A stretch of 64,000 nt of DNA, from positions 4,229,626 through 4,293,625 of the forward strand of contig NC_057752.1 in the NCBI RefSeq assembly GCF_004010195.1, written 5' to 3'. This document shows, one piece after another, positions 1,884-57,505 of the stretch (position 1 is its first letter; each line of letters opens with the position of its first letter). The notes beneath the pieces were generated by a model. That model searched no databases. It saw nothing but the letters and a program-made list of their open reading frames with translations, and was not told where the DNA came from. Source of the stretch: Chiloscyllium plagiosum (lineage: Eukaryota). The position numbers and the translations under genes are program-made.

Positions 1884-2118
1884 TGTAGTGATCGTAACGA
1901 GGTCAGCCAGGTAGATCTCATAGAACACAAGTTCCTTGATTGGAGATGTTAACCTGGTCCACTAGAGAAGCCCTGGGCTGACACATTTGGAAGGGAGTGT
2001 GAAAGGTTCTGTTCACTCTGAGACCTGGCTCTGAGGAAGCCAGATCAGTGTCAAGGACCATGCGACTGTTAATAAAAAGTGGCTTGGTGACAGGATACCA
2101 GCCTCTGGAGTTATTTCA
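1884..2118 (+). repeat. 5' LTR of Gypsy copy 1 (uninterrupted)
   Basis: tgtagtgatcgtaacgagg...ggagttatttca; aligns by eye with the other three LTRs; contains aataaa. Confidence 0.85.
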
Positions 2119-4735
2119 GTGGCAATGAGAGCAAAAATACACTCCTGAAGAAATTTGCTCACAACAGTCATCTTTTAGTTGGAGTAAGCATTTTTGGCAT
2201 CATGTCGTTATTTGGGAAGCTTGATTCATTTGATCCTGCCATTGAACACTGGGCACAGTATGTGGAAAGAATGTGTTATTTTTCTCCCAGGCAAATGACA
2301 TTGGGGCAGACAAGAACAAAGAACAAAGAAAATTACAGCACAGGAACAGGCCCTTCAGCCCTCCAAGCCTGCGCTGATCCATTTACTGTATCTAAACCTG
2401 TCGCCTATTTTCTCAGGATCTGTATCCCTATGCTCCCTGCCCATTCATGTATCTGTCTAGATACATCTTAAATGACACTATTGTGCCTGCCTCTACCACC
2501 TCTGCTGGCATCGTGTTCCAGGTACCCACCACCCTCTGCGTAAAGAACTTTCCACGCATATCCCCCTTAAACTCTTCCCCTCTCACCTTGAAGTCATGAC
2601 CCCTAGTAATTGACTCGTCCACTCTGGGAAAAAGCTTCTTGCTATCCACCCTGTCTATATCTCTCATGATTTTGTAGACTTCAATCAGGTCCCCCCTCAA
2701 CCTCTGGCTTTCTGATGAAAATAATCCTAATCTACTACATCCATACCAGGCAACATTCTGGTGAACCTCCTCTGCACCCTCTCCAAAGCATCCACATCCT
2801 TTTGGTAGTGTGGCAACCAGAACTGCGCGCAGTACTCCAAATGTAGCTGAACCAAAATCCTATACAACTATAACATGACTTACCAACTCTTGTACTCAAT
2901 ACCTCGTCTGATGAAGGAAAGCCTTCATGACTACTTTGTTGACCTGCGTTGTCACCTTCGGGGTACACTGGACCTGAACCCCCAGATCTCTCTGTACATA
3001 AATTTTCCCCAGGGCTTTTCCATTTACTGTATAGCTCCCTCTTGAATTAGATCTTCCAAAATGCATCACCTTGCATTTGCCCGATTGAATTCCATCTGCT
3101 ATTTCTCTGCTCAACTCTCCAAGCTATCTATATTCTGTTGCATTCCCCTTCACTATCTGCTACTTCACTAATCTTAATGTCATCTGCAAACTTGCTTACC
3201 AGACCACCTATACCTTCCTCCAGATCATTTGTGTATATCACAAACAGTGGTCCCAGCAAGGATCCCTATGGAACACCACTGGTCACACTTCTCCATTTTG
3301 AGAAACTTCCTTCCATTACTACTCTGTCTCCTGCTGCCCAGCCAGTTCTCTATCCATCTCGCTAGTACACTCTTCACCCCATTTGACTTCACTTTCTCTA
3401 TCAGCCTACCATGGGGAACCTTATCAAATGCCTTACTGAAGTCCATGTATATGACATCTACAGCCCTTCCCTCAATCAACTTTGCCACTTCCTTGAAGAA
3501 TTCTATTAAGTTGGTAAGACATGACCTTCCCTGCAGAAAACCATGTTACCTGTCACTGATAAGCCAATTTTCTTCCAAATATACATAGTTCCTATCCCCC
3601 AGTATCTTCTCCAACAGCTTCCCGACCACTGACATCCTGCTCACCAGTCTATAATTACCTGGATTATCCCTGCTACCCTTCTTCAACAAGGGGACAACAT
3701 TAGCAATTCTCCAGTCCTCCAGGAGCTCACCCATGTTCAAGGATACTGCCAAGTTATCTGTTGAGGCCCCAGCTATTTCCTCTGTCTTTTCCCTTAGTAA
3801 CCTGTGATAGATCCCATCAGAACCTGGGGTCTTGTCCTTAATGGCTTTTAGAATACCCAATACTTCTCCCTCCTTATGCCAACTTGACCTAGAGTAATCG
3901 AACATCTATCCCTAACCTCAACATCTGCCATGTCCCTCTCCTCGGTGAATACTGATGCAAAGTATTAATTAAGAATCTCACCCATTTTCTCTGACTCCAC
4001 ACATATCTTTCCTCCTTCATCCTTAAGTGGGCCAACCCTTTCTCTAGTTATCCTCTTGCTCTTTATATATGAATAAAAGGCTTTGGGATTTTCCTTAAAC
4101 CGGTTTGCTAAAGATATTTCATGATCGCTTTTAGCCCTCTTAATTCCTCATTTCATATTGGTCCGACTTTCCTGATATTCTTCCAAAGCTTCGTCGTTTT
4201 CAGTTGCTGAGACCTTATGCATGCTTCCTTTTTCCTCTTAGCTAGTCTCATAATTTCACCTGTCATCCATGGTTTCCTAATCTTGCCATTTCTATCCCTC
4301 ATTCTCACAGGGACATATCTGTCCTGCACTCTAATCAACCTTTCTCTAAAAGCCTTTCACATATCAAGTGTGGATTTACCTTCAAACAGCTGCTCTTAAT
4401 CCACATTCCCCAGCTCCTGCCGAATTTTGCTATAGTTGTCTTTCCCCCAATTTAGCACCACTCTCATCTTTGTCCATGAGTATTCCAAAACTTATGGAAT
4501 TGTGATCACTATTCCCAAAGTTATCCCCTACTGAAACTACAAACACCTGGCTCGGCTCATTCCCCAACACTAGGTCCAGTATGGCCCCTTCCCAGTTGGA
4601 GTTTTACTGCTCTGTAAAACCCTCCTGGATGCTTCTTACAAATTGTGCTCCATCTAGACCTTGAACACTAAGTGAATCCCAGTCAATGTTGGGAAAATTA
4701 AAATCTCCTACATCTTTCCATAATGTGTTTACATA

Positions 4736-5720
4736 TAGAAAATACAACATTACAGCGCAGTCCTTCGGCCCTCAATGTTTCGCTGACCTGTGGAAACGAT
4801 CTGAAGCCCATCTATCCTACAGTATTCCATTTTCATCCAAATGTTTATCCAATGACTAATCGCCCTTAAAGTTACCAAACGAGTCTACTACTGTTGCAGG
4901 CAGTGAGTTCGAAGCCCCTACTACTCTCGGAGTAAATAAACTACTTCTGACATCTATCCGATAACTATCACCCCTCAATTTAAAGCTGTGTCCCCTCATG
5001 CTAGTCATCACTATCCGAGGAAAGAGGCTCTCACTGTCCACCCTAACTAACCTCTGACTTTCTTATATGTCTCAACTAAGTCACCTCTCAACCTTCTTCT
5101 CTCCAACGAAAATACCCTCAAGTCCCTCAACCTTTCCTCATAAGACCTTCCCTCCATACCAGGCAACATCCTAGTAAATCTCCTCTAAACCCTTTCCAAA
5201 GTTTCCACATCTTCCTATAATGCGGCGACCAGAACTGTACGCAATACTCCGAGTGTGGCCGCATCAGAGTTTTGTACAGCTGCACCATGATCTCATGGTT
5301 CTGAAACTCAGTCCCTCTCCCAATAAAAGCTAACACACCATATGCCTTCTTAACAACCTTATCAAACTGGGTGACAACTTTCAGGGATCTATGTACCTGG
5401 ACACCGAGATCTTTCTGCTCATCCACACTACCAAGAACCTTACCAATAGCCCAGTCCTCTGCATTCCTTTTACTCCTTCCAAAGTGAATCACCTCACACT
5501 TTTCTGCATTAAACGTCAATTGCCAACTCTCAGCCCAGCTCTGCAGCTTATCCATGAACATCTGTAACCTACAACATCCTTCAGCATTATCCGCAACTCC
5601 ACCGACCTTAATGTCATCAGCAAATTTACTAACCCGTCCTTCTACGCCCTCATCTACATCATTTATAAAAATGACAAACAACAGTGGCGCCAAAACAGAT
5701 CCTTGCGGTTCACCACTAGT
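4736..5720 (-). mobile_element. Second 5'-truncated CR1 LINE nested in the first
   Basis: ORF 5127-5753 PQGSVLAPLLFVIFIND..SKFADD..EYCVQFWSP duplicates RT sequence already present at 2700-3300; it has its own 3' tail near 4740. Confidence 0.82.
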
Positions 5721-5724
5721 ATTT

Positions 5725-5928
5725 GTGTTGAGAGTTTGGTGCTGGAAAAGCACAGCAGGTCAGGCAGCATCCAAGGAGCAGGAGAATCCATGTTTCGGGC
5801 ATAAACCCTTCATCACAAGCTCAAAACGTGGATTCTGCTGCTCCTCGGATGCTGCCTGACCCACTGTGCTTTTCCAACACCACATTCTCGACTCTGATCT
5901 CCAGCATCTGCAGTTCTCACTTTCTCCT
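5725..5928. mobile_element. Penelope-like (PLE) terminal-repeat hairpin insertion
   Basis: Inverted arms gctggaaaagcacagcaggtcaggcagcatcc / ggatgctgcctgacccactgtgcttttcc; 13-bp TSD accactagtattt at 5712-5724 and 5929-5941. Confidence 0.75.
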
Positions 5929-8421
5929 ACCACTAGTATTTATACCTTTATCTCAATCTCATTGTTGGGAGACCTGTAGTACAGTCCCAACCCAGTTACC
6001 CTTTCTGTTTCTGAACTCTGATATTGCCTCACTGCTCGAGTCCTCCATAGTGCCCTCCTTCAACACAGCTGTAATATATTCTTTTACCAGTAATGCAACT
6101 CCTCCACCACTTTTACCTCCTTCTCTATCCTGCCTGAAGCATCTATGTCCTGGGATATTTAGTTGCCAATTTTGCCCTTCCCTCAACCAAGTCTCAGTAA
6201 TAGCAATAACATCATATTCCCAGGTACTAATCCAAGCCCTAAGTTTGTCTGCCTTACCTACTACACTTCTTGCATTAAAACAAATGCACTTCAGACCACC
6301 TGTCCCTTTGCATTCATTATCTGCTCCCTACTTACTCTTCCCCTTAATCATTATCTTCATTATCTAGTTCCTTCAGGTTTTAGTTACTACCACCTTACTG
6401 TCCTCTAACCTCATTTGGTTCCCATCCCCTGCCATATTAGTTTAAAACCTCCCCAACACCATTAGCAAAAGCACCCGCGATGATATTGTTTCCAGTCCAG
6501 CCTAGGCATAGACCGTCCAATTTGTAATAGTCCCACCTCCCCCAGAACCAGTCCCAATATCCCAAACATCTGCCCAAATGTATTGGTTCACTCACCTTCC
6601 CAGAGGGCAATTCAACCGCTCCCACTCAGCTCCTTGTTCTCACTGCTCCTGCTGCAAAATGGAGGCCACTGAGTCCACGAGGTATTTAAATAGGACATTT
6701 ACCTTCCCAGCCACCCCCTGCCCCTTGCTCTTGTCCCTTCCGTTGCTGCTGAAAGTGGAGGCCGCTGACTCTCGAGGTAAGTCCTTTTATAGGGAAATGT
6801 ATCTTCCTGGCAGCCCCCTAAACCTTGATCTCATTGCTCCTGCTGAAAATGAAGCAATGAGTAATTCTCCTGCCAGCTTGTGGACCCACAGCTCTTTCGT
6901 TCATTTGGAGCCTAACTCTCCCTGAGGCATCAGATACAAAAACCTTTCAAGAATTGACAGATTTAGTGAAGCAATATTACAACCCAAGTCTCCTGCAATG
7001 CTCAGACACAAAAGTTTTACTCAACTGTTTGAATCCCCATATCGGGATTTTTGACAAGGTTAAGATGACTGGCAGAGGCATGTGACTTTAGTTTAACTCT
7101 TAAAGTGATGTTGAGAGACCATTTGGTAGGTGGGATTAATGATGTAACCATGCAAAAATGTCTACTTATGCCTACAAAATGAAGCTCAACTGGACTTCAA
7201 ACAGGCACTACAACTGGCTTTGTCACTAGAAAATGCAGATGTAAGGGTGCCAGGGATGGAGGCCAGGTTATGTATGAACTCTCCGTAATAATCAATAAAT
7301 AAAGTGAGGCATATGAGTTACAGGGTATGCCAATGGAAGTGGACACCCTCACCAGGCTGACTGAGCTTTGGGGACACCACTTGAGTGAAGGCAATTGCAT
7401 AGCCTCACTCAGGACATATCCTGAACAGGCTAGCCCACAGCAAAACCCCAAAACAAAGCCAAGCCTCGGCCAAGCAGTTAACATTTTCTTCAGGATCTGG
7501 ATTGGCAAACCATTGTGGTTGCTGCCGGTATGCGGACTCGAGACAGAAAATGAGACTTAAAAATGGAGTAAGAGAATTCATAAACTGGTATCCAGGAGAG
7601 TGCACATCCTGGAAAGCCCACCTACATCTGGTTTGGAACAGTTAAATTGCTTAGCAACATTCAAATCAGAACCAATCTGGTTAAGTGGTCACCTGGTTCT
7701 AGTGGAGATTGATACCAGTGCAGCTGTTTGAGTAATCGCAGAACAGGGGTTTTTAACAAAATTTGCTCTGGATTGCAACCCTTAAGTTTGAGTGAGACCT
7801 CGACTAGACTGATAACCTATACCAAGGAGCCTTTACAGATTAATGGTAGAACTTCAGTTCCATTTTCGAATGAGAAGCAGCTGGTTCATGTAGCACTGAT
7901 TGTAGTAAAAGGCTCAGGCCCAAGCCTGATGAGGTGAAATTGATTGAGAAAGATTCACCTTGATTGGCTCCACATTTTCCAATTAGAAAATGGCAGTCTG
8001 AGTGAGGTCCTAATTAAATATCCGAAAGTTTTTCAGGAAGGTCGAGGGGCTATCAGAGAAGTCAAGGCCACCTTGCATGTTGACCAGGAAATAGTTCCAC
8101 GATTTTGTAAGGCCCACCCAGTGCCATTTTCCTGACATGCAAAATATGAGGCAGAAATCAGGAGACTGAAAAGCAAAGAAATCATTAAACCAGTATGTTT
8201 TGTGAATTGGGCAGCACCAGTTATACCGATTGTGAAGCATGATGGGTCAGTTCGCCTTTGTGGGGATTTTAAACAAATGGTAAACCGTTCTCAAGGTTGG
8301 ATAAATACCCAGTCCTATGCATTGAGGATTTGTAAGCAAAGCTGGCAGGGGGTTGTTCTTCATGAAACTGGAATTTTGCCATGTCTACCTGCAATTGCAA
8401 TTAATACCCGTAAGAGTTTGT

Positions 8422-8636
8422 CAAAAAGTGTGGCGCTGGAAAAGCACATCAGTTCAGCATCCGAGGAGCAGGAGAGTCGACACTTTGGACATGAGCCCTT
8501 TGTCAGGCATGTGGATGTAAGGGCTTTTGCCTGAAGCATTGATTCTCCTGCTCCTCGGATACTGCCTGACCTGCTGTGCTTTTCCAGCACCACACTTTTC
8601 AACTCTGATGTCCAGCATCTACAGTCCTCACTTTTT
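8422..8636. mobile_element. PLE terminal-repeat hairpin insertion in Gypsy RT
   Basis: Same inverted-arm family; 15-bp TSD cccgtaagagtttgt (8407-8421) / cccataagggtttgt (8637-8651). Confidence 0.75.
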
Positions 8637-10506
8637 CCCATAAGGGTTTGTACCAATATACGAGACAGCTATTTGGGGCATCATCAGCCTGTGCCATTGT
8701 TCAGAGGACAGTGGAGAATACAAGGTCTACCCCAAGTCGCTATTTACTTAGGTGAGGTGCTCATAACGCAGAAGACCAATAAAGACCACTTGGAGAACTT
8801 GGACATTATCCTTAGAACTTTCTCCATGGCAGGCATTCACCTTGAAGGGAAAAATATGTGTTCCAAGCAGCCCAAGTGACCTACTTGGGTTAGAGTTGAC
8901 CAGGCCGGGTTACAACCTTTGGAAGATAAAATGAGAACAATCAAAGGTACCCCAGCTCCCACGGCTGTACTGGAGCTTAGATCTTTCCTTGGATTGGCGA
9001 ATTATTACAGAGAGTTCATGCATAACTTGGCCTCCACCCTGGCACCCTTACATGTGCTATTGATAAAGGATCAGTCTTGGAAATGGTCTCGTAGCCAAGA
9101 TGTAGCCTTTAGAGAAGTGCAGAAGCAGCTGTCATTGCCAACGTGTTGACACACTCTGATCCCAAGTGAGATCTGGTGCTGACATGCGATGCCTCCCCGT
9201 ATGGTATTGGGGTACTGCTGGCTCACAGATGACCCACTGGAGAAGAACGCCCAATACTGTATGCTTCCTGGACTTTGGCTAATGCAGAACACAAATACAG
9301 CCAAATAAAAAAGGAAGGTATGACGGTCATCTTTGGTGTGAGAACGTTCCACCAGTACCCTTACAGATATAAATTTGTAACAGTAACAGACCACAAACCC
9401 GCGAGAGTTACTCAAAGAGGACAAGGTCGTGCTGCCCATAGCTTCAGGTTGAATTCAGCAGTGGGCTCTCATTCTGTGCACATACAATTACACACCAGAA
9501 CACCGTCCAGGAGGACAAGTAGCAAATGGGCATGCCTTGAGCCCCTCCCACTGGGCACCGGTAGTGCCTTTCCTGGAACAGTCCATTCTGGTTTTAAACT
9601 TTCTGGACACCCTTCTAGTCACCACTGACAATATCTGCCTGTGGGCGCAAAGAGATCTGGTCCTGACAAAACTAAAACAGCTGGTGCTGATAGGGTAAAC
9701 AAAAGGGCCATAACAACCAGAACTGAAACTTTTCTGGACACGGCGAGGCCAGGTCGCCGTGGAGGACAGCATATTATTATGGGGAGCAAGAGTGATTCCC
9801 AAGCAAAAGCCACTGCCAGATACAGGCTAAACTCCTCCAGGGTCATCTGGGGTGTCCAAAATGGCAAGAAGTTATGTCTGGTGGCCAGGATTGGATGCAG
9901 GCATAGCTGTGCCCAGAGTGCCAACAAGGACACAAATTACTGCCAGCAGCTCCCCCACATTCATGGGAATGGCCAGGTAAACCTGAACTTGGTTACACAT
10001 TGACTATGCCAGCCCTGTCATGGACTCAATGCTCTTCGTCATTGTGGATGTCCAAAGTGGTTGGATATTCATAAACATGGGGACGATGATAGAAACCTGC
10101 GAGCATCTTATGCAATACTTGGACTCTCCGAGGTGTTGGTCATACACAATGGGCCATCATTTACCAGCAGGGAATTTGAGTCTTTCCAAAAGTCAAATGA
10201 CATTCCGCATGTAAGGACAGCTCCATACCATCCATCATCCAATGGGCTGGCAGAAAGAACAGTTCAAACTTTGAAGGCAGGTTTAAAGAAATAGCCTACA
10301 GCTTCACTTAATACCAAACTGTCCCAGTTCCTATTTGATTATCAGAGCACCCACCCCGCCATGTAACTACAGGGATAGCTTTAGCAGAGTTGCTAATGGG
10401 GAGAATACTCTGCACCAGGTTAAATCTGATCTTTCTGGAAATGAAGGGGACAATGAAATGTCATCAGGAATGCCAATGCTGAACACAGGACTCCTCTAAG
10501 CAACTA

Positions 10507-10726
10507 GGAGAAAGTGAGGACTGCAGATGCTGGAGATCAGAGCTGAAAATGTGTTGCTGGAAAAGCGCAGCAGGTCAGGCAGCATCCAAGGAACAGGAGA
10601 ATCGACGTTTCGGGCATAAGCCCTTCTTCAGGAATGAATTCCTGAAGAAGGGTTATGCCCGAAACGTCGATTCTCCTGTTCCTTGGATGCTGCCTGACCT
10701 GCGCTTTTCTAGCAACACATTTTCAG
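10507..10726. mobile_element. PLE terminal-repeat palindrome with hammerhead cores on both strands
   Basis: Near-perfect ~100-bp inverted arms centred near 10636; perfect 16-bp TSD ctcctctaagcaacta at 10491-10506 and 10727-10742; CTGAAGA-A-stem-GAAAC-GTC at 10642-10668. Confidence 0.8.
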
Positions 10727-11226
10727 CTCCTCTAAGCAACTAAGACAGTTTACTTCAGGGGATGAAGTTTGGTGCCAAAAGAATGGAAATGGCCTTGCAT
10801 GGGTAAGAGGCATGATCGATGCGAAGTCAGGTCCCATCATGTGCAAAGTTTGGGTAGGTGAGGCGGTCCTGAACAAGCACGTGGACCACATGAAAAGTGC
10901 AAACTCATAAACGGGACAGAAGCAAAATGTATCCAGCCCCTTAGAACAACTGGAAAGGCTATCTAACCTGTGGGGTTTCCCCCTCTGTCTAGCTTTGAAG
11001 AAACCACAAAGTCTGAGATGGACATGGCAGATGTCATAGCCTTGATGACTTGACAACCTGAAGAAGAGACTGAATTTCTTCTGAGACGCTCTGGGTGCAA
11101 GAGGCAGGCTATGGTCTGGGACAAGCTGCCCGTATCTGAAGCTATTTGGAGGACCTGGTGCAAAAACTCTCCAGGAGAGACTACAAGAAAAAGAACAGAC
11201 CTATGTCGCCAGACACAGGAGCGGGA

Positions 11227-11941
11227 TGCAATGATTGTAATGAGGTCAGCTGGGTGGATATTATGGAATATGAGTTCCCTGATTGGGGCAGTTAATCTGA
11301 TCCCATCAGGGACCCCTGGCTGACAGATAAAAAACAGGAGTGTCAGGTCCAGGCAACGGGCCATGGAGGGTGTCATTAGGGCCGATTGCCTGCCCCTCTT
11401 CCATGGTTAGGTTCGAGCCTAGGTGTCCCTGGAGAAGGAGCATGTTGTGTCCACCTACACTCTTGAGCTGTTCAGGGATAGGAGGGCACTGCAGGGAGTG
11501 GAGTGCTTTATTTCCCCCTCCAACTCTATTTTGATCTAATCCCTGCCCTCCCTTTCACTTTTTGATCATGCAGCATTGTCCTTTGTCAGGAAGGGTATTG
11601 CTTGTCACTGGCCACTCTGGTGTTTCCTTTCTTCCTGGTGGTGGAATATAAATGAAGATTTACAAACTTTTTGTTCTTCACTGTGTCCTACACCTGCACA
11701 TATACAACATGGGTGCTAGGGAAAAATAAGCACTACCACTGTTAGGCGGTAGTCTGGGGGAACATTTAAAGAAAGAAAAAAAAACAGGGGTGTCAGGGTT
11801 CTGTTAAAAAAAAACAGGAGCGTTAGAGGTTCTGTTCACTCTAAGCGCTGGCTCTGAGGGAGCTGGACCAGTGTCAGCTACCATGCACATGTAAATAAAG
11901 GGTGACCTGCTGACAGGATACCGGCCTCTGGAGTTATTCCA
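11227..11941 (+). repeat. 3' LTR of Gypsy copy 1, interrupted by Tx1
   Basis: Purine-rich tract caggagcggga precedes tgcaatgattgtaatgagg; ends ggagttattcca; split at aaaacaggagtgtcag. Confidence 0.85.
11348..11780 (+). mobile_element. Tx1-clade LINE 3' fragment (family A) inside the LTR
   Basis: Homologous to 44101-44545 and 63410-64000; encodes a degenerate ORF2 end; 3' UTR and A-tail; flanked by aaaacaggagtgtcagg / aaaacaggggtgtcagg. Confidence 0.78.
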
Positions 11942-12991
11942 ATTTCCCTCTTCCACGTCCCTATAGCATTCTGCTTGGAAGCATTCCTATTGGAAGCTTG
12001 TGCTTGTCATGCTCAGTTGATGACAAGTGCAAGGCTTGCACCAACTAAGAGGGGGAATTGCTTGGTGACTGCTCTCTATGCTTGTTTAAAACTTATCTTT
12101 GATTTCTTTCTTTTGCTTTTGTAGTCCTCACTACTGAATGAACTGCTAGACCACTTCAGGGACCATTGAGAATTAACCACAGCAGATTAATACAAGAAAT
12201 AGGAGCATGTGTAGGCTATTAAGCCCTCTAAGTATGGCTAATCTATTTGTGGCCTTAGCTCCTTTTTCCAATCTGCAACTCATGACCCATGACTCCCTTG
12301 TTAATTAAAAATCTATGTAATCTATCTTTGAATATATTCAAAGACCCAGACTCTACTGGTCTTTGGAAAAGGAAGTTCCACAGACTAATGACCACCTAAG
12401 GGACAACAAATTCTTGGTCTGAAATAGGAGATCCATCATCTATAAACCATTTTCCCCTAGTTATGGAGGCAACATCCTCTCAGCATCTCCTTTGTCAATA
12501 TCTCTCAGGATCATACATGTTTCAATAAAACCACCTCTGCTTCTCATAAATTCCGTTGGGTCTCAACCAATTCAGCTTTCTTAAAAATACATCATCCTAG
12601 GTATCAGTCTAAACCGTTTCTAATGTAATTATATCCATTCTTAAGATAAACGACCAAAGCTCTACACTATTTCCTCTTGACAAATTCCTTTCTGACCTAT
12701 TTAAACGTCATTTGGTGCCCGACTAAAGTCAAATGTTTGCCTATGTACTCTTGACCCATTTCTATAAGACTTATACAAATGTACAGTAAATTGCTTGTGA
12801 ACTACTGAAATACTGAGAAAAAAATCTGACTGGATAGGTATATTTGGCCAATTTGATAAATTGCCCCATTTTAAAATAATCTGAGAAGTCAGTAGTTAAC
12901 ATTTACTAAAAGCCAGTTCTGCAATGATCTGTGGTCAGACTTATACATAGACTGCCTGAGCATATTTTGAAGAGCTGGCATTTATGTGGCA

Positions 12992-15135: not shown

Positions 15136-16696
15136 ACTTTGTCTGGCGACCTCCATAGGCTGCCAGATTCAGCACAATTAGTATCTGAATATGTGTACAT
15201 TCTTGCAATTCATTGTGCTACCCATTGGTGCCAGCAAGATGATGTTGACCTCACTCCAGTGGCCTCCTTCCTCACATGAAGACAGGGCAGTGGCAATAGG
15301 TACCCAACCAGAGGAGGAACCAGATATGGACCCCTAGAGGCTCCTCTTAAGGCATTCCATAGGAGACTGAGCCATCCACCTCGATCCTTGCTGCTGCCTA
15401 TACTCCTATGGGAGTTGATGCCAAGGAGGTCACACCTATCTCTGAGTAGGAGGCACTCAGCATGTCTGGGTCCTCTACCCACAGACGCTGGGGTCACCTG
15501 ACAAAACCTCCAAGGCCGATGGGCTCCACTCTAGGGCAGGCTCCCTCCACCCCAACTGAGGACCCCAGGACTGCAGCGAGGTATAGTGGGAGGGAAAGCA
15601 AGAAGGACAGTAAATAGGTAGTTCAGGTCACACATCACTATAAATATGTTCACTTTTCTTCATCGGCTGTGTGACTAAATGTCTGCGTATCTGCAGCTAC
15701 AAATTTGAAGGTACTGAGCCTAGCCATCCTTATTGCTACACAATATTCTGACTGATCTGTGTACAGGATCTGACTGACTTCTTGTGACTTCCAGGGCTGG
15801 TTACACTGGACTCACAGGGCTGACCAAGGCCCACTCCTCAGACTGTAGAGGTGCAGAACCCCTAGCTCTGACTACCCCAAGCAGCCACATGGCTGTGCTC
15901 AACCCACAGAATGGTTTTGGACAATGCCCTTGGATTACTGTGTTGGGACCCCTGACTGAGGGGTATCGTCCTTAACTTGACTGAGGACTACTCCCCTTAG
16001 ACATGGCCATTTGATTGCAACATATGCAGTGTGTCTCATGGCAAACGGAGTAAGTGAGAGATTGATATAGCTCGATGCTCTACAGTAACATGTCACTTCC
16101 TTTATTGATGACTGCTGACAACCATGATAGGCTGTTTGGCTTTTTATCTGCACTAAAAGACATGTTGAGACAGAAGTACTGTGAGCCTTTAAGGTGCTGT
16201 GAGCATTGAAAACGTTGCAAAGTTAGCGAGTACTAAGAGAGCAAGTGAGGACCCCTGGGATGCCCCCAGGTTGAATCTATAAAATAGGTCCTCATACCTT
16301 GCAGCAGCATTCCAATGATAGGTGATGCAGCACTCCAAAGTGTAACATGGAAGTGCAGAACTACCTTGCAAATGTGGAGATGTTCCATGAGGGTGCAGTG
16401 AAGCCAGCATCTGTCAAATGCCACTATTCATGAACGGTGAGTGTGCGTGATTGTTGCCCTTGGAGTGTGCCCTGGGATGTTGGTGACTGTCATAGGTCCA
16501 AAGGAGCAAGCAGCAAGCTGTAGTTGCCAGGTAGCTGACTTCTGTCTCTGGAATTGTTGGCGTCTCGACTGTATCTGGTGGATAAGAGGAGGGAAACTGC
16601 ATATAAATGAGGTGAGATTAACTAATAATGTGATATTAACAGATAGAAATAGGATTCTTGCTGCTCACTACTGGTGGTGAACTGCTTTCTTCAATT

Positions 16697-18005
16697 AGGT
16701 AAAAACAATGACTGCAGATGTTGGAAACCAGATTTTGGATTAGTGGTGCTGGAAGAGCACAGTAGTTCAGGCAGCATCTGAGGAGCAGCAAAATCGACAT
16801 TTCGGGCAAAAGCCCTTCATTAGGAATAAAGGCAGAGAGCCTGAAGCGTGGAGAGATAAGCTAGAGGAGGGGGGGGGTGGGGAGAAAGTAGCATGGAGTA
16901 CNNNNNNNNNNNNNNNNNNNNNNNNNNNNNNNNNNNNNNNNNNNNNNNNNNNNNNNNNNNNNNNNNNNNNNNNNNNNNNNNNNNNNNNNNNNNNNNNNNN
17001 NNNNNNNNNNNNNNNNNNNNNNNNNNNNNNNNNNNNNNNNNNNNNNNNNNNNNNNNNNNNNNNNNNNNNNNNNNNNNNNNNNNNNNNNNNNNNNNNNNNN
17101 NNNNNNNNNNNNNNNNNNNNNNNNNNNNNNNNNNNNNNNNNNNNNNNNNNNNNNNNNNNNNNNNNNNNNNNNNNNNNNNNNNNNNNNNNNNNNNNNNNNN
17201 NNNNNNNNNNNNNNNNNNNNNNNNNNNNNNNNNNNNNNNNNNNNNNNNNNNNNNNNNNNNNNNNNNNNNNNNNNNNNNNNNNNNNNNNNNNNNNNNNNNN
17301 NNNNNNNNNNNNNNNNNNNNNNNNNNNNNNNNNNNNNNNNNNNNNNNNNNNNNNNNNNNNNNNNNNNNNNNNNNNNNNNNNNNNNNNNNNNNNNNNNNNN
17401 NNNNNNNNNNNNNNNNNNNNNNTCCTTGTTACGGTTGGAGGGGTGGGGTCTGAGGGCGGAGGTGCGGGATGTGGACGAGATGCATTGGAGGGCATCTTTA
17501 ACCACGTGGGAAGGGAAATTGCGGTCTCTAAAGAAGGAGGCCATCTGGTGTGTTCTGTGGTGGAACTTGTCCTCCTGGGAGCAGATCCCGCGGAGGCGGA
17601 GGAATTGGGAATACGGGATGGCATTTTTGCAAGAGGTAGGGTGGGAAGAGGTGTAATCCAGGTAGCTGTGGGAGTCGGTGGGTTTGTAAAAAATGTCAGT
17701 GTGAAGTCGGTGGTCATTAATGGAGATGGAGAGGTCCAGGAAGGGGAGGGAGATGTCAGAGATGGTCCAGGTAAATTTAAGGTCAGGGTGGAATGTGTTG
17801 GTGAAGTTGATGAATTGCTCAACCTCCTCGCGGGAGCACGAGGTGGCGCCAATGCAGTCATCAATATAGCGGAGGAAGAGGTGGGGAGTGGTGCCGATGT
17901 AATTACGGAAGATCGACTGTTCTATGTAGCCAACAAAGAGACAGGCATAGCTGGTGCCCATACGTGTGCCCATGGCTACCCCTTTGATCTGGAGGAAGTG
18001 GGAGG
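16697..18005 (-). mobile_element. Penelope-like element: RT core plus terminal repeat (spans the N-gap 16902-17422)
   Basis: HFLQIKGVAMGTRMG..YACLFVGY..FLRYIDD..LPFLDL..FYKPTDSHSYLDYTSSHP..KNAIPYSQFLRLR is the PLE RT and thumb signature; terminal repeat 16697-16901 belongs to the hairpin family above. Confidence 0.9.
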
Positions 18006-29200: not shown

Positions 29201-32200
29201 ATTTATATATTTCTACTCCAAAAATAAGAAACAAGGTTTGACCTGCATGCTGACACCAGAAGTGACCATGGATATTACAAGATTAATTCTGTTGTTCAAG
29301 ATCAAAAAGTTGGCAAAGTTATCATTGTGTTAATACTGCATCATGGTCCATCATCACAGGCTCATCAGGGCAACTTAATTGTTCATTGTTATGTGAGCCT
29401 GACCATACACCCCACTCTTGCTCATTATGTGGCCAGTGACAATGATTACATATGTCACTGGTTCAGAACAGATGTGCTGGCAAATTCAATGCCAACTTAT
29501 ATAAAGACTTTCAGTTCAACTACCCGCAGTTCTCATAATTCCCATGACTGGTCACCAGTACCTTTCTGGACGCACATAAGCAGGCACATCGTATGTACTG
29601 AAGGCTTTTCCATATAGAAACATATGAAATTATGAAGGAAATAGATAAGATAGAGGTAGAGAGGATGTTTCCACTGGTGGGTGAAACTGGGACAAGAGGA
29701 AATAGCCTCAAAATTAGGGGGAGTAGATATAGAACTGAATTGAAAAGGAACTTCTTCACCCAGAGGGTTGTGAATCTATAGAATTCTCTGCCCAGTGAAG
29801 TGGTTGAGGTTTCCTCAGTAAATGTTTTTAGAGCTAATGTAATTTTTTGAACAGGAAAGGAATTAAAGGTTTTGGTGAGAGTACAGGTAAGTGGAGCTGA
29901 GGCCACAAAAAGACGAGCCATGATCTTATTGAGTGGTGGAGCGGGCTCAAAGGGCCTGATGGTCTACTCCTGCTCCTTGTTCTTATGTTCTTATAAGTTC
30001 AGATCATGGAGCCCATTACAGCTGAACTTAATTTTTACATGACACTTAGTGTTAAGAATTATTTCTGATTGCTATTTTTTATTTTTTAAAAGCATTTGTA
30101 AAGATTTAACTGTTTGAGTTCTCAAAAATATAGACTCAAGGGAATCTGTTGAATTCCTTGACAAGTCATGACCAGGTCTTTAAACAGCTGATTTACTCAC
30201 TGGCTAGGGTCACTGCATAGAATAAAAACCGTGCTGACTTTTCAGAGGGATCACTGCCCAGTTGATATCAAGTAAGTCAGCACCCAGACCAGAAATTGGA
30301 TTTTGAATTGCCTCAGTATTATAATATAGTCCATTCATCCATTCCACATTTAGCAGCGTTGAGGTTGGGGGGAGGTGTGGTTATTTTTTAAGTAGTAAAA
30401 GATTCTTAAGATACAATATGATTCACTTCTGGATATTTCTGTATAGAATTAAACAGTTTAAGAGCAGCTATTGAAAATGTCATTTTCTTTGCTAACATTT
30501 CACTTTTTAAATAAACACACATTTAGCGCCCTGGGTTGGATGCAGCAATTACTGAAGCAGAGGAACGTGGAGAAATAAATGTGAGAAAAATAAGGGCAGA
30601 GATTACTGAACGAGAGAATGAGATATACCAAGCCAAGCAGGCTGTAGCTCGGAAATTACGGGATTATCAAGAGCTACTGAACATCAAGATTGCCCTAGAT
30701 TTTGAAATTGCCACCTACAGGAAAATGCTGGAGGGAGAGGAGATCAGGTACAGAACGTTTTTGGATAACAATATTTTTATTTGGTCATGGGACGTGAGCT
30801 TGCTGATGGGGCAATCCTAATGAAGATTGTCTAAAAACATGTTTCACCCTAAGAAAACTTTGTATAAGCAAATTGTAAATGTGTTTATAAAGTACGTGCT
30901 TATTGTTTAGTTGCAAATGACATGCTATTAAATGCATTCTTATCAGTGTTTTAAATCTATCTTATTTCTTCAAGCAATCATTATTAAATATTTCATATGA
31001 TTTCATGTTTAGCAGGCAAATTCAGATCTCCAAAAAAAGGTGTGACTAGTGTACATTCCAAAACTACCTAATGTATCCCTCAACTTTTTCTTTTGGATTT
31101 TTTTTAATCCAAGTTATATGAATTTTAGACATTACGTAAAATGAAACTTTGCTGAGTGTAGAGCTATTCGAGGATGCAGACTCAGAGGATAGCAACACTG
31201 ATACTACTTCAGGCTCAACCTAAATAGCTTGCTTGAGTTGCATCACATCCAGCACAAAAGGAGCAAAGGCCTTTGAAGGTAAGGGGATGCAGAATATTGA
31301 TGTCACTCTGAAATAGTACACAGGGTCTGACCAGCCAAGACAGCTCATTTAGTAAGATTCCTTATGTTATTGTGAGTCACTGAGATAAGAGGCTGATTGC
31401 AGGCAAAAATTAGTTTAGGTCATAGTCTCACCTGCCTTACATATCTAATTTTGACCTAAAAGACTATGGACGCTCAATCCCTAAGTATAATTCAAGACAG
31501 AGAGTAATAGATTTTTGGGCACTAAGACAATAAAAGGATGTAGGGAGAGGGTGGGAAAGGGGAGATGAGCTAGATCAGCCATTACCATACTGAATAGCAG
31601 AGCAGGCCTGAGGACCCTGCTCCTATACTTATGTTCTTGCAATCTTGTAGTCTCTACCAGTGGATTAGGGGCAAAAGAATGGTTAAATTGGCAGATTTTA
31701 AAAAAGCTGAAAATGTGTTGCTGGAAAAGCGCAGCAGGTCAGGCAGCATCCAAGGAGCAGGAGAATCGATGTTTCGGGCATGAGCCCTTCTTCAGGAATG
31801 AGGAAAGTGTGCCCAGCAGGCTAAGATAAAAGGTAGGGAGGAGGGACTTGGGGGAGGAGTGTTGGAAATGCGATAGGTGGAAGGAGTGAAGGTTTGTAGC
31901 TCAGGTTGAGGTTTAGGGTGTAGGTTTGCTCGCTGAGCTGTAGGTTTGATATCCAGACGTTTCATTACCTGGCTAGGTAACATCATCAGTGGCGACCTCC
32001 AAGTGAAGCGAAGCTGTTATCTCCTGTTTTCTATTTATATCTTTCTCCTGGATGGGGTTCCTGGGGTTTGTGGTGATGTCATTTCCTGTTCGTTTTCTGA
32101 GGGGTTGATAGATGGCATCTAGATCTATGTGCTTGTTTATGGCATTGTGGTTGGAGTGCCATAAAAAACATCTGGATTTAGTATATAAATAGGAAGGGTT

Positions 32201-35200
32201 CAGAGGGATATGGGGAAGTGTTGGCAAAATTGACAAGATTAGGTTAGGGAATCAGGTCGACATGGACAAGTTGAACCAGAGGGTCCGTTTCCGTGCAGTA
32301 CATCTCTATGAATCTATGTCTATATAATGAAGGGCATCAAGTGAAACACCTTCATAACCGCCCTGTCTATATATGAAGAAAACTTCAAAGAATTATGCAT
32401 GAAACCCTAGGTTGCTCCGTTCTACAACACTACTAATGGCTCAACATTTAATTATATATGTGTTTTTTTTAAGAGAAAGTGAGGACTGCAGATGATGGAG
32501 AACAGAGCTGAAAATGTCCCCCCACCTTGTCTCAGTCCCAACCCTCGGACTCAGCACCACCTTCCTAACCTGCAGTCTTCTTCCTGACTTCTCTGCCCCC
32601 ATCCCCACTCCGGCCTATCACCCTAATCTTATCACCCTCACCTTAACCTTCTTCCACCTATCGCATTTCCAACGCCCCTCCCCCAAGTCCCTCCTCCCTA
32701 CCTTTTATCTTAGTCTGCTTGGCACACTTTCCTCATTCCTGAAGAAGGGCTCATACCCGAAACGTCAATTCCCCTGCTCCTTGGATGCTGCCTGACCTGC
32801 TGCGCTTTTCCAGCAACATATTTTCAGCTCTGATCTCCAGCATCTGCAGCCCTCACTTTCTCCTCGAAGATTAAAAAAAAACAGTCAAACTCCACACAAG
32901 TCACTTAAACTTCATTAGTTGAGGTAATGATACAAACATCCTGTTTAAAGAGGGGTGTGAAATATTGGATAAAATAGGCATAATGAGAAGGGAAGTACTG
33001 GAGGACCTGACCTCCTTGAAGATGGATGAATCAGCAGAGCCAGATGAATTATATCCTCCGCTGTTAGATGAAACCAGAGCAGAAATAGCGGATCCTCTGA
33101 GGATCACTTTCCAATCCTGACTGGATGCAGTTTAGGTGGCTGAGGGTTGGAGGGGTGAATGTTATACTATTTTTCAGAAATGGTACGAGGGATAGACCAA
33201 CTAATTATAGGCCAGTCAGTCTGACCTGAGTGGTGAGCAAATTACTGGAACCAATATTGAAAGATAGCATTAACTGCTACTTGGAAAGACAAAGATTGAT
33301 CAAGTATAGTCAGCATGAATTTGTTATGGGAAGGTATGGCTTCCTAACTTTAATTTTTTGAGGAAGTAGCATGGGGTGGTGTAGAAGGTTCGGCATGGAA
33401 TACAGGGAATGTGATGAGTTGGATCCAAATTGGCTTAGTGACAGGAAACAAAGTGTATTGGGCAGTAAATATTTTTGCAAATGGAAAGCAGTTTCCAGCA
33501 GTGTCCCACAGGGTTCAATATTAGTTCTCACGCTGTTTGTCTTATATATTGATGTTTTAAACTTAATTCTGACAGGCATGAGTGGGACATTTGCAGACAG
33601 TGCAAATATTGGTCAGGTAATTGATAGTGATGAAGATGGCTTTCAACTGAAGCAATATATTAATGGCTTGGTTGAATGGGAGCATATTGAATTCATCCTG
33701 AAGAAGTATGAAGTAATATATTTGGGGAGGGAAAAGCAAAACAATAATCACTAAACGAGATGGTATTGAGAGGGGTAGAGGAAGTGCGAGATTTTGGAGA
33801 GTGCATGCCCACATTTCTGAAGGTGGCAGGGTAGGTGGATAAGGTGGTAAGGAAGACATATGGGATGCCTTCTTTCATTGGATGAGGTATTGAATACAAA
33901 AATAGGGGTGTAATGCTGGTACTATATGAGACACTGGTTGGACCACTGCTGGAGTTTTGTGTACATTTCTGGACACCAGGTTATAGGAAGGACATCATTG
34001 TGCAAGAGGGGATTTACAAGAATGTTGCCAGGACGTGAAAGTTGCGACTATGCGGGAACATTGGATAGGTGGGGGTCATTTTCCTCAGAACAGAGGAGGC
34101 TGATGGGTGGCTTTAATTGACATGTACAAAATAACAAGGGGCTTGGATAGAGTGGGCAAGGAAGACCTGTTTTCCCCTAGTGGAGAGATCAATGACTAGG
34201 GTCACTGATTTAAGATGATTGGTAAGACATTAGAGGCAGCATGAGGAAAAACCTATTCACCCAGAGGGTAATGAGTGACTGGAATTAGCTGCTCAGTTAA
34301 TTGAGGTGGAAGCTCTCAACTCATTTTACACAAACCTGGATATTCCCCTGAAGCTCTAGAATCTGCAAAGGTACAGAACAGCTGCTCGTCCGTGGGATTA
34401 GAACAGGCAGCTACTTTATTCAGCTGACACAGAGACAATATGCTGAACAGCTTTTTTCTGTGCTGTAACATTTCTTTACCTTGTGTATCTGTGCAAGCAG
34501 GATATTTTCAGATCATTATCTTTTACACAAACAATGCCATATCATTGAATCACTTTGCAAGACAGAAATATATTTGAGTGCATGTTTGAGAAATTTAACA
34601 GCAGTCAGGAGAATTTTATCGAACAAAAATATTGTTTGATTACATGGTTCCATTCAACATGTTGGATTTTTTTTTGCCTCTATTTATTTATTTACTTATT
34701 TATGTGATTAAACATTAATTTGCAGGATTGGTCAGCAGCAGAAGGCAATTGTTCATATTAACACCCCACCAGTATCTGGTAAGTTGTTCTACCACATGCT
34801 AGAATTCAGCTCACTTAGCTCTTTGATTAAATTATGTCAAGGCTGGCATAGTACTGAGCCAAGCAGTTCAAAGGCTAACGAACTATTCCGTATTTTAAGG
34901 ATTGTCGCACATTTCAATTATGAGACCTGGGAGGATTCAGGGGATGGGAAGGGATTGGGAAATGCTTGTGACCAGAAGAGAGGGGCCTGATGGGGGGTTC
35001 TGGGTTCTGTGATAGTGGGCTGGAAGGGGTCTTAGGTGACCATAACATCAAAGGCACAAGGAGATGCCTGGCTCAGTTTCCCACAGACAATCCTAGAATA
35101 AGGGACACAAAGGTATCCCCTGAGAACTATGGAATACTGTCTAGTGAGAGAGTCTGTGTGTGCAGAGGGAAAATCAAAGGATGGAAAAAATTTTGATTGT

Positions 35201-41137: not shown

Positions 41138-42490
41138 AGAGTCATTGATATCTCCAGCATGGAAACAGACCCTTCGGTCCAAAACGTCCATGCCGACCAG
41201 ATATCCCAACCCAATCTAGTCCCACCTGCCAGCACCCAGCCCATATCCCTCCAAACCCTTCCTATTCATATACCCATCCAAATGCCTCTTAAATGTTGCA
41301 ATTGTACCNNNNNNNNNNNNNNNNNNNNNNNNNNNNNNNNNNNNNNNNNNNNNNNNNNNNNNNNNNNNNNNNNNNNNNNNNNNNNNNNNNNNNNNNNNNN
41401 NNNNNNNNNNNNNNNNNNNNNNNNNNNNNNNNNNNNNNNNNNNNNNNNNNNNNNNNNNNNNNNNNNNNNNNNNNNNNNNNNNNNNNNNNNNNNNNNNNNN
41501 NNNNNNNNNNNNNNNNNNNNNNNNNNNNNNNNNNNNNNNNNNNNNNNNNNNNNNNNNNNNNNNNNNNNNNNNNNNNNNNNNNNNNNNNNNNNNNNNNNNN
41601 NNNNNNNNNNNNNNNNNNNNNNNNNNNNNNNNNNNNNNNNNNNNNNNNNNNNNNNNNNNNNNNNNNNNNNNNNNNNNNNNNNNNNNNNNNNNNNNNNNNN
41701 NNNNNNNNNNNNNNNNNNNNNNNNNNNNNNNNNNNNNNNNNNNNNNNNNNNNNNNNNNNNNNNNNNNNNNNNNNNNNNNNNNNNNNNNNNNNNNNNNNNN
41801 NNNNNNNNNNNNNNNNNNNNNNNNNNCTTCTCAGCCCATTGGCCCATCTGGTCAAGATCCTGTTGTAATCTGAGGTAACCCTCTTCGCTGTCCACTACAC
41901 CTCCAATTTTGGTGTCATCTGCAAACTTACTAACTGTACCTCTTATGCTCGCATCCAAATCATTTATGTAAATGACAAAAAATAGAGAGCCCAGCATCGA
42001 TCCTTGTGACACTCCACTGGTCACAGGCCTCCAGTCCGAAAAACAACCCTCCACCACCACCCTCTGTCTTCTACCTTTGAGCCAGTTCTGTATCCAAATG
42101 GCTAGTTCTCCCTGTATTCCATGAGATCTAACCTTGCTAATCAGTCTCCCATGGGGAACCTTGTCGAACACCTTACTGAAGTCCATATAGATCACATCTA
42201 CTGCTCTGCCCTCATCAATCTTCTTTGTTACTTCTTCAAAAAACTCAATCAAGTTTGTGAGACATGATTTCCCACGCACATAGCCATGTTGACTATCCCT
42301 AATCAGTCCTTGCCTTTTCAAATACATGTACATGCTGTTCCTCAGGATTTCTTCCAACAACTTGCCCACCATTGAGGTCAGGCTCACCAGTCTATAGTTC
42401 CCTGGCTTGTCTTTACCCTTCTTAAACAGTGGCACCACGTTTGCCAACCTCCAGTCTTCCGGCATCTCATCTGTGACTATCCATGATACA
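41138..42490 (-). mobile_element. Young CR1 LINE, RT and tail (spans gap 41309-41826)
   Basis: Open RT frame [47 protein letters not shown]. Confidence 0.92.
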
Positions 42491-43387: not shown

Positions 43388-43850
43388 AATAAACTGATTA
43401 TTCTACTCCCTGCCCTCCCATTCACTGTTTGATCACGCAGCATTGCCCTTTGTCGAGAAGGGCGCTGCTTGTCACTGACCACTCTGGTGTTTCCTTTCTT
43501 CCTGGTGGTGAAATTTGAATGAAGATTTGTACACCTGCTGTCTTTCACTGGGTCTCACACCTGCACACACACAACATGGGTACTGGGGAAAATATGAGTT
43601 AGGCGGTAGTGTGGGGGTAAGGGAAAAAGAAAAATAATAAACTGGTTATTCTAATCCCTGCCCTCCCATTCACTTTTTGATCACGCCCTTTGTTGAGACG
43701 GGTACTGCTTGTCACTGACCACTCAAGTGTTTCCTTTCTTCCTGGTAGTGGAATATAAATAAAGATTTATGCACTTGCTGTTCTTCACTGTGTCTGACAC
43801 CTGCACACACACGACATGGGTCTGGGGGGAGAAAATAAACTGGTTATTCT
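43388..43850 (+). mobile_element. Two tandem Tx1 family A 3'-UTR fragments separated by a thrice-repeated 17-bp target
   Basis: aataaactg(a/g)ttattct at 43388-43404, 43636-43652 and 43834-43850. Confidence 0.78.
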
Positions 43851-44100
43851 CGGATTTCAAAATGAACATAGTTATTTCCATCTTCTTTATTGCTAAGCAG
43901 ATATGTATTGTCAGATGTGTGGACCTCACTGAACCACAAAATCTGATTTTACTAATTGATTTTCTATCAGCACATATACCTAAATGGCAGAAATGGACGT
44001 AACAGCATGTAGAATGTCCAGGTTCTGAGACAAAAGCTGGCTAACGAGCATGTGCCATATTGAGACCTACTGACACAGTTACAAATAGAAAAGCCTCTGC

Positions 44101-44615
44101 CCTGGCCAAACTGGCCATAAACAGGTCCAGGCAGCGGGCCGTGGAGGGGGTCATTATGGATGATTGCCTGCCCCTCTTCTGCAGTTTTGTCAGAGAAGGA
44201 GCATGCGGTGTCCACCAACACACTTGAGTTGTCAGGGAGAGGTGGGCACCGCAGGGAGTGGAGTGTATTATTTCCCCCTCCAACTCTATTTTGATTTAAT
44301 CCCTGCCCTCACATTCATTGTTTGATCACACAGCATTGCCCTTTGATGTGAAGGGCACTGCTTGTCACTGGCCAGTCGGGTGTTTCCTTTCTTCCTGTTG
44401 GTGGAAATTGAATAAAGATTTATAGACCTGTTGCCTTTCATTGAGTCTCACATCTGCACACACACAACATGGGTGCTGGGGAAAATATAAGCACTACTGC
44501 AGTTAGGCAGTAGTGTAGGGTGAAAAACAGAAAAAAGGAAAAAAATATATATATAACCAGGAGATTTAGAATTTCCTCAGTTTAGGGCACTGACTCTGTA
44601 AAAAAAAAGAAAACA
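44101..44615 (+). mobile_element. Tx1 family A 3' fragment with an 18-bp TSD
   Basis: LAKLAINRSRQRAVEG.. coding end, UTR and A-tail; TSD aaatagaaaagcc(t/c)ctgc at 44083-44100 and 44616-44633. Confidence 0.8.
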
Positions 44616-45729
44616 AAATAGAAAAGCCCCTGCACAGAATGTTATATGCAACAGTAAGCTCGATGGATCCACTCCCAAATTTGAGTCAGCGGATAACAGG
44701 TTCAGAGCATCAGGCACATACTCTGAGGGAATGCTGCACTGTCATAGGTGCCATCTTTTATATGAGTCATTAAAATGACGGCCCTTGCTATTGGATAACT
44801 TGTTTTACCTATGGCTGGAATTAAGTGTGATGACGAGTGTGTTTGATAACGGTAGCAGCGAACAGGGAGGAGCCTCAATAATTCCCATTCATCTTCCAGC
44901 TAGGTTGAAATAATTTAGTGAAACAAATTGACACCCACTTGAACATTTCAACTAAGGAAAGAATAACACATATTTGTTTTTTTATGTTGATAAAAATAAA
45001 CTACTGGGATTGCTATTGAGAAATGCTATCTAACTGTAGTGTAATAATTGAGTAGATTTACATATCCTATGTATGTAACTCGCTTGAAATTAAGTTTGAG
45101 AATTCAATATCTGATTTATTTATTTTTATAATCATTTTAGAGCTTCATTCCTTATTTTGATTTCTATGTTCCATAACATTTGAGTTCTGAATTGCTTTTG
45201 TCTTGCTTTGACAGAATTGATTAAGTGCAATGTTGTAAGACTAGGTATTAGACAACGGAAAAAGAACTCACGAATAAGTTTTTTTTAATATATATCTAAA
45301 CAGAAATGACTGGGAATTTTTTGAAACTCAATGAAGTGCCAAAAATGTAAAAATATGGTGATTATCATCATCAGGACAAGCCAGGACTTCTTTTTCATGC
45401 CTTGCACTCTTTGACCTGCCTGGAAGAGAGAAAATTAGATTGTTTTTCTGGCGATTGTAAACTGGCAATGTCACTGGTGCCTTTGGATGTCTGGAGAATA
45501 TTGATGTTTTACACTTAAGGGACTTAGAGAAAGCCTCAACACCTTTACTCTCCATCTTTGAACAGAGCAACAGTGTTGGAAATGTTGAAACAAAAAGTAA
45601 GATCAGTGTGTACTGGATGAGCTGAATGGCCTGCTTCCATCCTGTAGGGATTCTATGTTCTATGCAATAGATAAGGATGTCAATATGCGGAACACAATGA
45701 AAGAACAATTTTGAATTGCAGAAAACAAA

Positions 45730-52251: not shown

Positions 52252-52963
52252 CCCCACTGGTCCTCACCTACCACCCCACCAATCTCCATGTACAACGCAT
52301 CATCCGCCGTCACTTCCGCCACCTCCAAACAGACCCCAGCACCAAGGATATATTTCCCTCCCCTCCCCTATCAGCTTTCCGTAGAGACCACTCCATCCGT
52401 AGGGAGGTCCGTTGCTGGAGGCTGCGGATTTGTTGCAGGTACTGGTAGTCCTGGTTGGGTCCAAATTGTGTTGGTCGGAAGGTGATCTGGAGTCCATGGG
52501 GGATCAGTCGGTTCCGTAGGCTGGTGTTGAGAAAGGAGATATGGCTGTGGTAACGAGTCTGGTTCAGAATGTGGCTGAAGAGCTTCTGTGCAGAGGAGAT
52601 GACCTGGGGTGTGCAGTGAGAGAGGGACTCACTGAAATCTTTGTAGAGAGAGGCAGAGAGCTTCTTCAAGGAAGGCCTTCCTGACCTGCAGTCTTCTTCT
52701 TGACCTCTCCGCCTCCATCCTACTCCGACCTATCACCCTCACCTTGACCTCTTTCCACCTATCACATTTCCAACGCCCCTCCTCCAAGTCCCTCCTCCCT
52801 ACCTTTTATCTTCTCCTGCTGAACACTCTCTGCTCATTCCTGAAGAAGGGCCTGTGCCCGAAACATCGAATCTCCTGTTCCCTGGATGCTGCCTGACCTG
52901 CTGTGCTGTTCCAGCAATAAAGTTTCAACTTTGATCTCCAGCATCTGCAGACCTCACTTTCTC
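52252..52963. mobile_element. Rearranged PLE family A insertion (ORF pieces in both orientations plus terminal repeat)
   Basis: 14-bp TSD cacttaagtaagaa at 52238-52251 and 52964-52977; hammerhead motif attc-CTGAAGA-A-GGGC(ctgt)GCCC-GAAAC-ATC-gaat at 52836-52871. Confidence 0.8.
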
Positions 52964-57372: not shown

Positions 57373-57505
57373 GTACAACCTCATGTTTTTACCACTGAAA
57401 TAACTGCCGAGAGGGCAGTATCCCGTCACCAAATCCCCCTTTATTTACATGTGGAGAGTCCTGATCCAGCTCCCTCAGAGGCAGCTCTCCCTGGCCCTGC
57501 TGTTT

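Follow-up and report, generated by a model that had tools for sequence, protein, structure and literature searches.

The window, by which we mean the whole stretch of 64,000 nucleotides analyzed here, has a G+C content of 41% and contains five N gaps. Self-comparison revealed two collinear elements in opposite orientation, E1 (1884 to 11941, forward strand) and E2 (57396 to beyond the window end, reverse strand), which are 75 to 82% alike across most blocks. Their LTRs are 235 bases long, with ATTGG at +56 and AATAAA at +188. The elements and the sequences inserted into their LTRs are arranged as follows:

1884 to 2118, forward strand: LTR1, the 5' LTR of E1; uninterrupted, target word altered, with a PBS-like TGG behind it
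2119 to 11226, forward strand: internal region of E1, decayed Gypsy sequence collinear with E2, with several unrelated inserts and many stops and frame changes
11227 to 11347, forward strand: left part of LTR2, with an inverted CCAAT (11282 to 11286), the TATA-like GATAAAA (11326 to 11332) and the left target copy (11329 to 11347)
11348 to 11778, forward strand: insert in LTR2, a 5'-truncated LINE assigned to the Tx1 clade, with the end of ORF2, 3' UTR and A-rich tail; the 5' junction has CAGG in common with the target
11779 to 11836, forward strand: right target copy of LTR2 (11779 to 11797) and second duplication (11779 to 11805, 9 A, then 11809 to 11836)
11809 to 11941, forward strand: right part of LTR2, with AATAAA at 11894
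57396 to 57505, reverse strand: right part of LTR3, the 3' LTR of E2; degenerate target copy (57489 to 57505), then 15 bases missing
57506 to 57788, reverse strand: insert in LTR3, 283 bases, ending in AATAAA and an A-rich tail
57789 to 57908, reverse strand: left part of LTR3, with the left target copy (57789 to 57805)
57909 to 63276, reverse strand: internal region of E2, decayed Gypsy sequence identified with Pfam
63277 to 63409, reverse strand: right part of LTR4, the 5' LTR of E2, starting at the target word
63410 to 64000, reverse strand: insert in LTR4, a longer LINE piece assigned to the Tx1 clade, with the zinc-knuckle end of ORF2, 3' UTR and A tail; ends at the window edge

Judged by their sequence, E1 and E2 are badly decayed Gypsy elements with two LTRs, reverse transcriptase, RNase H and then pieces of integrase. 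When stops were read as X, Pfam detected RT_RNaseH in both E1 (E 1.7e-20) and E2 (E 8.8e-21), together with rve_3 in E1 (E 5e-4) and RVT_1 in E2 (E 2.5e-4), the latter two scoring below the Pfam cut-offs. The RNase H of both elements is of the LTR-retrotransposon type, and in E1 the weak integrase core lies behind it. PBS-like and purine-rich stretches occur at the places expected of Gypsy ends. For the target duplication of 4 to 6 bases expected around a Gypsy element, the flanks of E1 match at two of five positions; the other end of E2 lies beyond the window. In the right half of the LTRs, all five informative columns group LTR1 with LTR2 and LTR3 with LTR4, a pairing that is not visible from the overall LTR identity of 70 to 82%.

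Two further observations concern the host elements. An 870-base block is 92.9% identical between E1 (8693 to 9555, forward strand) and E2 (60783 to 61652, reverse strand), compared with 75 to 82% in the neighboring blocks, and within it four stretches of 100 bases each reach 99%. There is an N gap at 60399 to 60421. The block hints at a recent gene conversion over 51 kb or at assembly mixing. Self-comparison also detected a family of palindromic repeats of about 170 to 220 bases, self-inverted at up to 94%, with several copies within the Gypsy elements, which may be MITE-like or consist of head-to-head SINE pieces:

5727 to 5929, 8424 to 8638, 10505 to 10729, 16692 to 16874, 31703 to 31893, 32560 to 32864, 52676 to 52964 and 59024 to 59188: palindromic repeats

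Three of the four LTRs (LTR2, LTR3 and LTR4) are interrupted at the word AAACAGGAGTGTCAG by inserts with A tails, each in the same sense as its LTR, confirming an earlier note on this DNA that had described three such inserts at one LTR motif and in one orientation. When both strands were searched with up to three mismatches, this 15-base word was found at six places in the 64 kb, and all of these near-matches are insert junctions in LTR2, LTR3 or LTR4. The statement that LTR1 differs at the site and has no A-run was also borne out, and LTR1 is uninterrupted. By eye, a short inverted repeat, CAGAG ... CTCT(G/A) with a loop of about 10 bases, lies directly behind the target in the empty LTR. 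This repeat (11340 to 11361 region; visible at 11820 to 11845 and 63378 to 63400) overlaps with both the duplication's end and the 15 bases deleted in LTR3.

The duplication around the LTR2 insert is identical at 18 of 19 positions (11329 to 11347 and 11779 to 11797). A third target copy (11809 to 11836), missed in the earlier note, follows behind a run of 9 A; in the second duplication 24 of 27 paired letters are alike by eye, with one gap. This arrangement suggests that LTR2 was probably hit twice, with a poly(A)-only insertion at the same cut that came earlier or later than the LINE. Over 11690 to 12030, 35 gap letters were counted in the orthologous contig from organism C and 6 in that from organism B; the former may not contain the 30-base second duplication, and its absence would put a date on that event. 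In LTR4 the A tail of the LINE ends on the target word at 63409, while the left half of the LTR and the 5' junction lie beyond the window; the last 45 bases of the LINE 3' UTR are different in this copy. The LTR3 insert is unrelated to the LINE, as had been proposed, but it ends at 57788 and not at 57794. Within the window we found no likeness between this 283-base insert and the LINE or anything else and no second copy of it, and Rfam gave no match to the insert or to any other part of the window. Its duplication is degenerate (13 of 17) and is followed by the 15-base deletion. A cut 16 bases downstream would give a perfect 9-base duplication with no need for a deletion, but we rank this reading second because the right junction matches the target directly behind the tail (12 of 15, by eye). 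A blind scan of the window for A tails with duplications ranked LTR2 first (15 of 17) and recovered no further A-tailed insert that was convincing.

Likeness of the ORF2 C-terminus to Xenopus Tx1 places the LINE in the Tx1 clade and upholds the identity first proposed for the inserts. The LTR4 piece translates as the end of ORF2 with one frame change and is 57% identical to a relative, P0001, whose best informative full-length match is the Xenopus Tx1 149 kDa protein (YTX2_XENLA, P0013; 41% identity over 99% of P0001). Compared with Xenopus Tx1 directly, the LTR4 piece is 41% identical over 64 residues (E 2e-10). Pfam found nothing in the LINE piece of the window, and zf-RVT in P0001 scored below the cut-off. 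The window holds only the last 100 to 130 codons of ORF2 and no reverse transcriptase or endonuclease of this LINE family. Its copies do carry the hallmarks of LINEs, namely, an A-rich tail, 5' truncation and a target duplication. Named relatives of the piece are gene models from sawshark, sawfish, epaulette shark and whale shark, which points to a cartilaginous fish as the likely host.

The end of the LINE ORF2 itself holds a target-like word, ATAAACAGG (44117 to 44125 and 63821 to 63829), and the LTR2 copy is truncated exactly there, which self-insertion or microhomology could explain. Four shark or ray gene models annotated as golgin-like, FAM169B, pentraxin-like and CCDC68 (P0007, P0008, P0020 and P0050) include a piece of the LINE ORF2 end and are likely annotation artefacts or exonised repeats. 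A further protein, P0021, was rejected as a false match with no likeness to the window. Among viral contigs, a pattern scan with the LINE 3' UTR gave 0 matches and one with the LINE protein gave 18, of which 0 were confirmed; three matches to the LTR pattern among metagenome contigs were all rejected as chance, with likeness over only 22 to 25 bases. Other non-LTR reverse transcriptase pieces, at 3145 to 3887 and 41880 to 42480 (weak tblastn matches to P0013 to P0015), are probably of the L2 or CR1 type.

Of the five LINE 3' ends in the window, a stretch selected because it shows the pattern, two lie in LTRs and three outside them:

43388 to 43850, forward strand: two short LINE 3' ends in tandem, no LTR, with three copies of a 17-base word between and around them
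44102 to 44545, forward strand: LINE 3' end outside an LTR, with a duplication (44084 to 44101 and 44617 to 44634, 16 of 18)
44555 to 44598, forward strand: LTR-like tail of about 44 bases behind the A run of the 44102 copy, in register from the target word on and followed by a second A run

The two tandem copies are 87% alike. Their 17-base word begins ATAAACTG, like the start of the LTR target, and the duplication around the 44102 copy begins AATAGAAAAG. The resemblance of both to the LTR target start suggests a relaxed target word, but a loose form of this pattern has 18 matches in the window. The tail at 44555 to 44598 aligned to LTR2 with a score that 0 of 2,000 shuffles reached and to LTR4 with one that 25 of 2,000 reached, and scores of similar height were obtained at two other places in the window; this tail is likely a 3' transduction from a donor that sat inside an LTR. 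The copies at 43388 to 44633 had been offered as a caveat, making the LTR link a preference at most. That wording holds up, with three of the five ends outside LTRs, but the 44102 copy turns out to support the link to the LTR. A lone target-like word, ATAGAAAACAGGAG, lies behind a TATA-like run at 32016 to 32034 (reverse strand), with no LTR match around it.

We estimated how readily such a concentration would arise by chance. For at least two of four to five LINE 3' ends to fall on three given sites, P is 4.5e-5 to 7.6e-5 with 1,088 AAAA sites and 1.2e-4 to 2e-4 with 663 AAAC sites; these figures are rough and post hoc, the site having been picked after the pattern was seen and with no correction for site choice. 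To look at other loci, three contig sets and one RNA run were aligned to 11131 to 12030 at 80% likeness. Both the LTR and the LINE are very abundant, their depths exceeding that of the unique flank by about four orders of magnitude, although depth is not a copy number. Between 155 and 166 contigs per run leave at 11333, mostly showing an uninterrupted site (agreement 0.52 to 0.55), and joints in the contig sets jump from 11327-11333 to 11812-11847. LINE depth peaks above LTR depth. Many LTRs must therefore be empty and many LINE copies must lie elsewhere. In run X2 the depth at the tail/target junction is 808, compared with 122,229 just upstream, but we did not take this as a fraction, since tail lengths vary and break alignments.

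Among the 12 joint rows listed of 556, four represent stacks at other loci in organisms A and B, in which a LINE or LTR piece is followed by the target or a target-like word and then by a 5'-truncated LINE (X2 11788 to 11599, X9 11760 to 11559, X2 11867 to 11528 and X9 11874 to 11474). Three of these four rows have an A run among the letters between the units. In the X2 11867 to 11528 and X9 11874 to 11474 stacks, 55 to 60 bases of the right part of the LTR precede the A run, the same layout as at 44102; in our interpretation, they arose by 3' transduction from a donor located within an LTR. Searches with LINE queries gathered 86 proteins, 47 of which match the LTR4 piece at 55% identity or more. 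Six of the 47 also carry a Gypsy-family piece, all in the same sense, a count that is a lower bound from a biased sample. P0004, P0005, P0028, P0036 and P0040 have a Gypsy 3' end upstream, and P0050 has pol downstream; another repeat was found in 1 of the 47 (P0042), counting only the repeats present in the window. All six are separately named gene models of whale shark, and at 47 to 62% identity to the Gypsy pieces of the window they must represent other loci. They show adjacency and sense but not the exact site, because splicing hides the junctions.

Sister LTRs are identical when an element lands. Those of E1 and E2 carry different inserts or none, and the insertions are therefore later than the landing of the elements. 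Over their common core, the LTR2 and LTR4 copies of the LINE are 81% identical, within the range of 80 to 89% seen for all ten LINE pairs, and differ at both ends. Sister LTR contents, LINE identity and the different ends thus support the earlier view, and on this evidence the insertions in LTR2, LTR3 and LTR4 are independent events. In organisms B and C, contigs extend from the LTR2 tail across the LTR and on into the unique flank, with 20 and 11 differences, respectively, so the LTR2 insertion is old and is no assembly product. A contig of organism A spans the junction between the left part of the LTR and the LINE (11268 to 11489) with 40 differences and 1 gap letter, a divergence indicating a second locus with the same LINE truncation point.

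That second locus is an argument for an inherited position, in which a single ancestral LINE-filled LTR was copied by Gypsy, by gene conversion or by mis-assembly; the 92.9% block shared by E1 and E2, with its hint of conversion or assembly mixing, points the same way. Copying of a LINE-filled LTR is indeed a possible source of the shared truncation point, but the point coincides with CAGG microhomology beside a target-like word in the LINE and could recur. The unequal contents of sister LTRs, inserts that differ in length, 3' end and family, the divergence of the LINE copies and the presence of the LTR2 3' junction in organisms B and C all argue against inheritance, which we consider highly improbable. 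The earlier note had named descent from one ancestral event as the finding that would speak against its proposal, and for the window this explanation fails.

The reading we favor, with a probability of roughly 0.7, is that a Tx1-clade LINE inserted independently at the same site, showing a leaky preference for a single word in the Gypsy LTR. The LINE endonuclease likely prefers the target word and uses weaker look-alikes elsewhere. Target-primed reverse transcription would start at a bottom-strand nick in the T-run, duplicate 17 to 19 bases and rebuild the target behind each new tail. A rebuilt target could be hit again, as the third copy in LTR2 and the stacks at other loci suggest. The same enzyme may have placed passengers, namely, the 283-base insert in LTR3 and the lone A run in LTR2. 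Some donors would have resided inside LTRs, and their transcripts would have continued into the LTR before polyadenylation.

A general hot spot would require no dedicated family. Of the TTTT/A-type sites in a very abundant LTR, this one would simply be the most exposed, an L1/Tx1 site offered by open promoter chromatin or a bendable A-run and used by several unrelated retroposons. The LTR site does fit the plain TTTT/A rule of L1-type enzymes, and the unrelated insert and bare A run at the same position, the three LINE ends elsewhere and the empty state of LTR1, which is without the A-run, are all as this explanation predicts. Yet other A-runs, in the LTR AATAAA box and in 14 kb of internal sequence, are without any LINE copy, the off-LTR sites also begin ATA(G)AAA or ATAAACTG, and stacks at other loci have the target word between their units. 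We regard a general hot spot as unlikely. At the other extreme, the family might be strictly target specific, its outside copies being decayed LTR remnants, transductions or tandem by-products. One outside copy, at 44102, carries LTR sequence, and the other two form a tandem with a repeated target-like word. However, no LTR sequence flanks 43388 to 43850 or the duplication around 44102, the LINE exceeds the LTR in depth, many contigs pass through LTRs whose site is empty and the junction in LTR3 is degenerate; strict targeting is very doubtful.

Tx1 families preferring LTR retrotransposons were reported from crocodilians in 2015 (Kojima 2015, PMC4494074), and the earlier note therefore overstated the novelty of such targeting. 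What is new here are the probable double hit in LTR2, the LTR-like tail of the 44102 copy, the stacks and the six whale shark models. The crocodilian families Tx1-8_Crp and Tx1-4_AMi share the preference for LTR retrotransposons but belong to another host group, and the section of PMC4494074 on them gives no LTR class, position in the element or target word. PMC4494074 calls a family target specific when more than 20% of its copies genome-wide are flanked by one kind of repeat. The paper also describes Tx1-Mar and SINEU, which, like the LINE here, occupy a fixed site and orientation in an abundant old transposon, Mariner-N4_AMi, with tandem insertions around the duplication and passengers at the same site; their preference for it ranges from 13% to 90% (PMC4494074). 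Their target is a DNA transposon and not an LTR, and the passengers there carry U1/U2 heads (PMC4494074); for the LTR3 insert, Rfam gave no match. Tx1L of Xenopus laevis likewise inserts into another transposon (PMC4494074). The Tx1L target is the piggyBac-type Tx1D; here it is an LTR. Keno (U2 snRNA genes), Kibi and Koshi (microsatellites) are described in parts of PMC4494074 and PMC4640811 as target-choosing members of the Tx1 clade with an apurinic-type endonuclease, and the latter lists transposons among the known targets. Their targets differ from the LTR here, and the window contains no Rfam family. Among open-licence papers, a body of literature that does not include Repbase, none was found that deals with a shark Tx1 aimed at an LTR or a TATA box. 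The present case extends the set of Tx1 elements found inside other transposons to cartilaginous fish and specifies both the word and the position. With both partners very abundant, the site may have disrupted promoter regions in many LTRs, and the LINE/LTR pairs offer plentiful natural material for studying how the target of an apurinic-type endonuclease becomes wider or narrower.

Within the LTR, CCAAT, the TATA-like word and AATAAA follow one another as in a U3-R-U5 layout with a candidate promoter. The TATA-like GATAAAA starts at 11326 in LTR2, the first base of the insert lies 22 bases behind this start, and the duplication leaves CCAAT and TATA intact. Borrowing or disruption of the promoter by the LINE, as proposed in the earlier note, is a hypothesis. 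In its strongest form, which strikes us as rather unlikely, the LINE would be a promoter parasite of the Gypsy LTR, with LTR-resident copies as the active donors in several shark lineages. The LTR would then drive transcription of a full-length copy from very near the first base of that copy, the transcripts would read on towards the LTR poly(A) signal, hence the LTR tails, and the same launch pad would be handed to passenger RNAs. The insertions would gain in importance if donors relied on the LTR promoter, but even this would amount to a variation on an established strategy, since R2 is known to depend on transcription of its flanks and the same has been proposed for SINEU (PMC4494074). The RNA run, a poly(A) single-cell data set of which about 2 in 100 reads were read, had no place where many molecules begin; its reads came from other copies and speak neither for nor against a start, which would be expected about 25 to 30 bases behind the TATA-like word. 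It contributed 2,042 reads, 0 of them at 99% identity and mostly with the first mate on the minus strand, and 293 reads have a poly(A) end at 11760.
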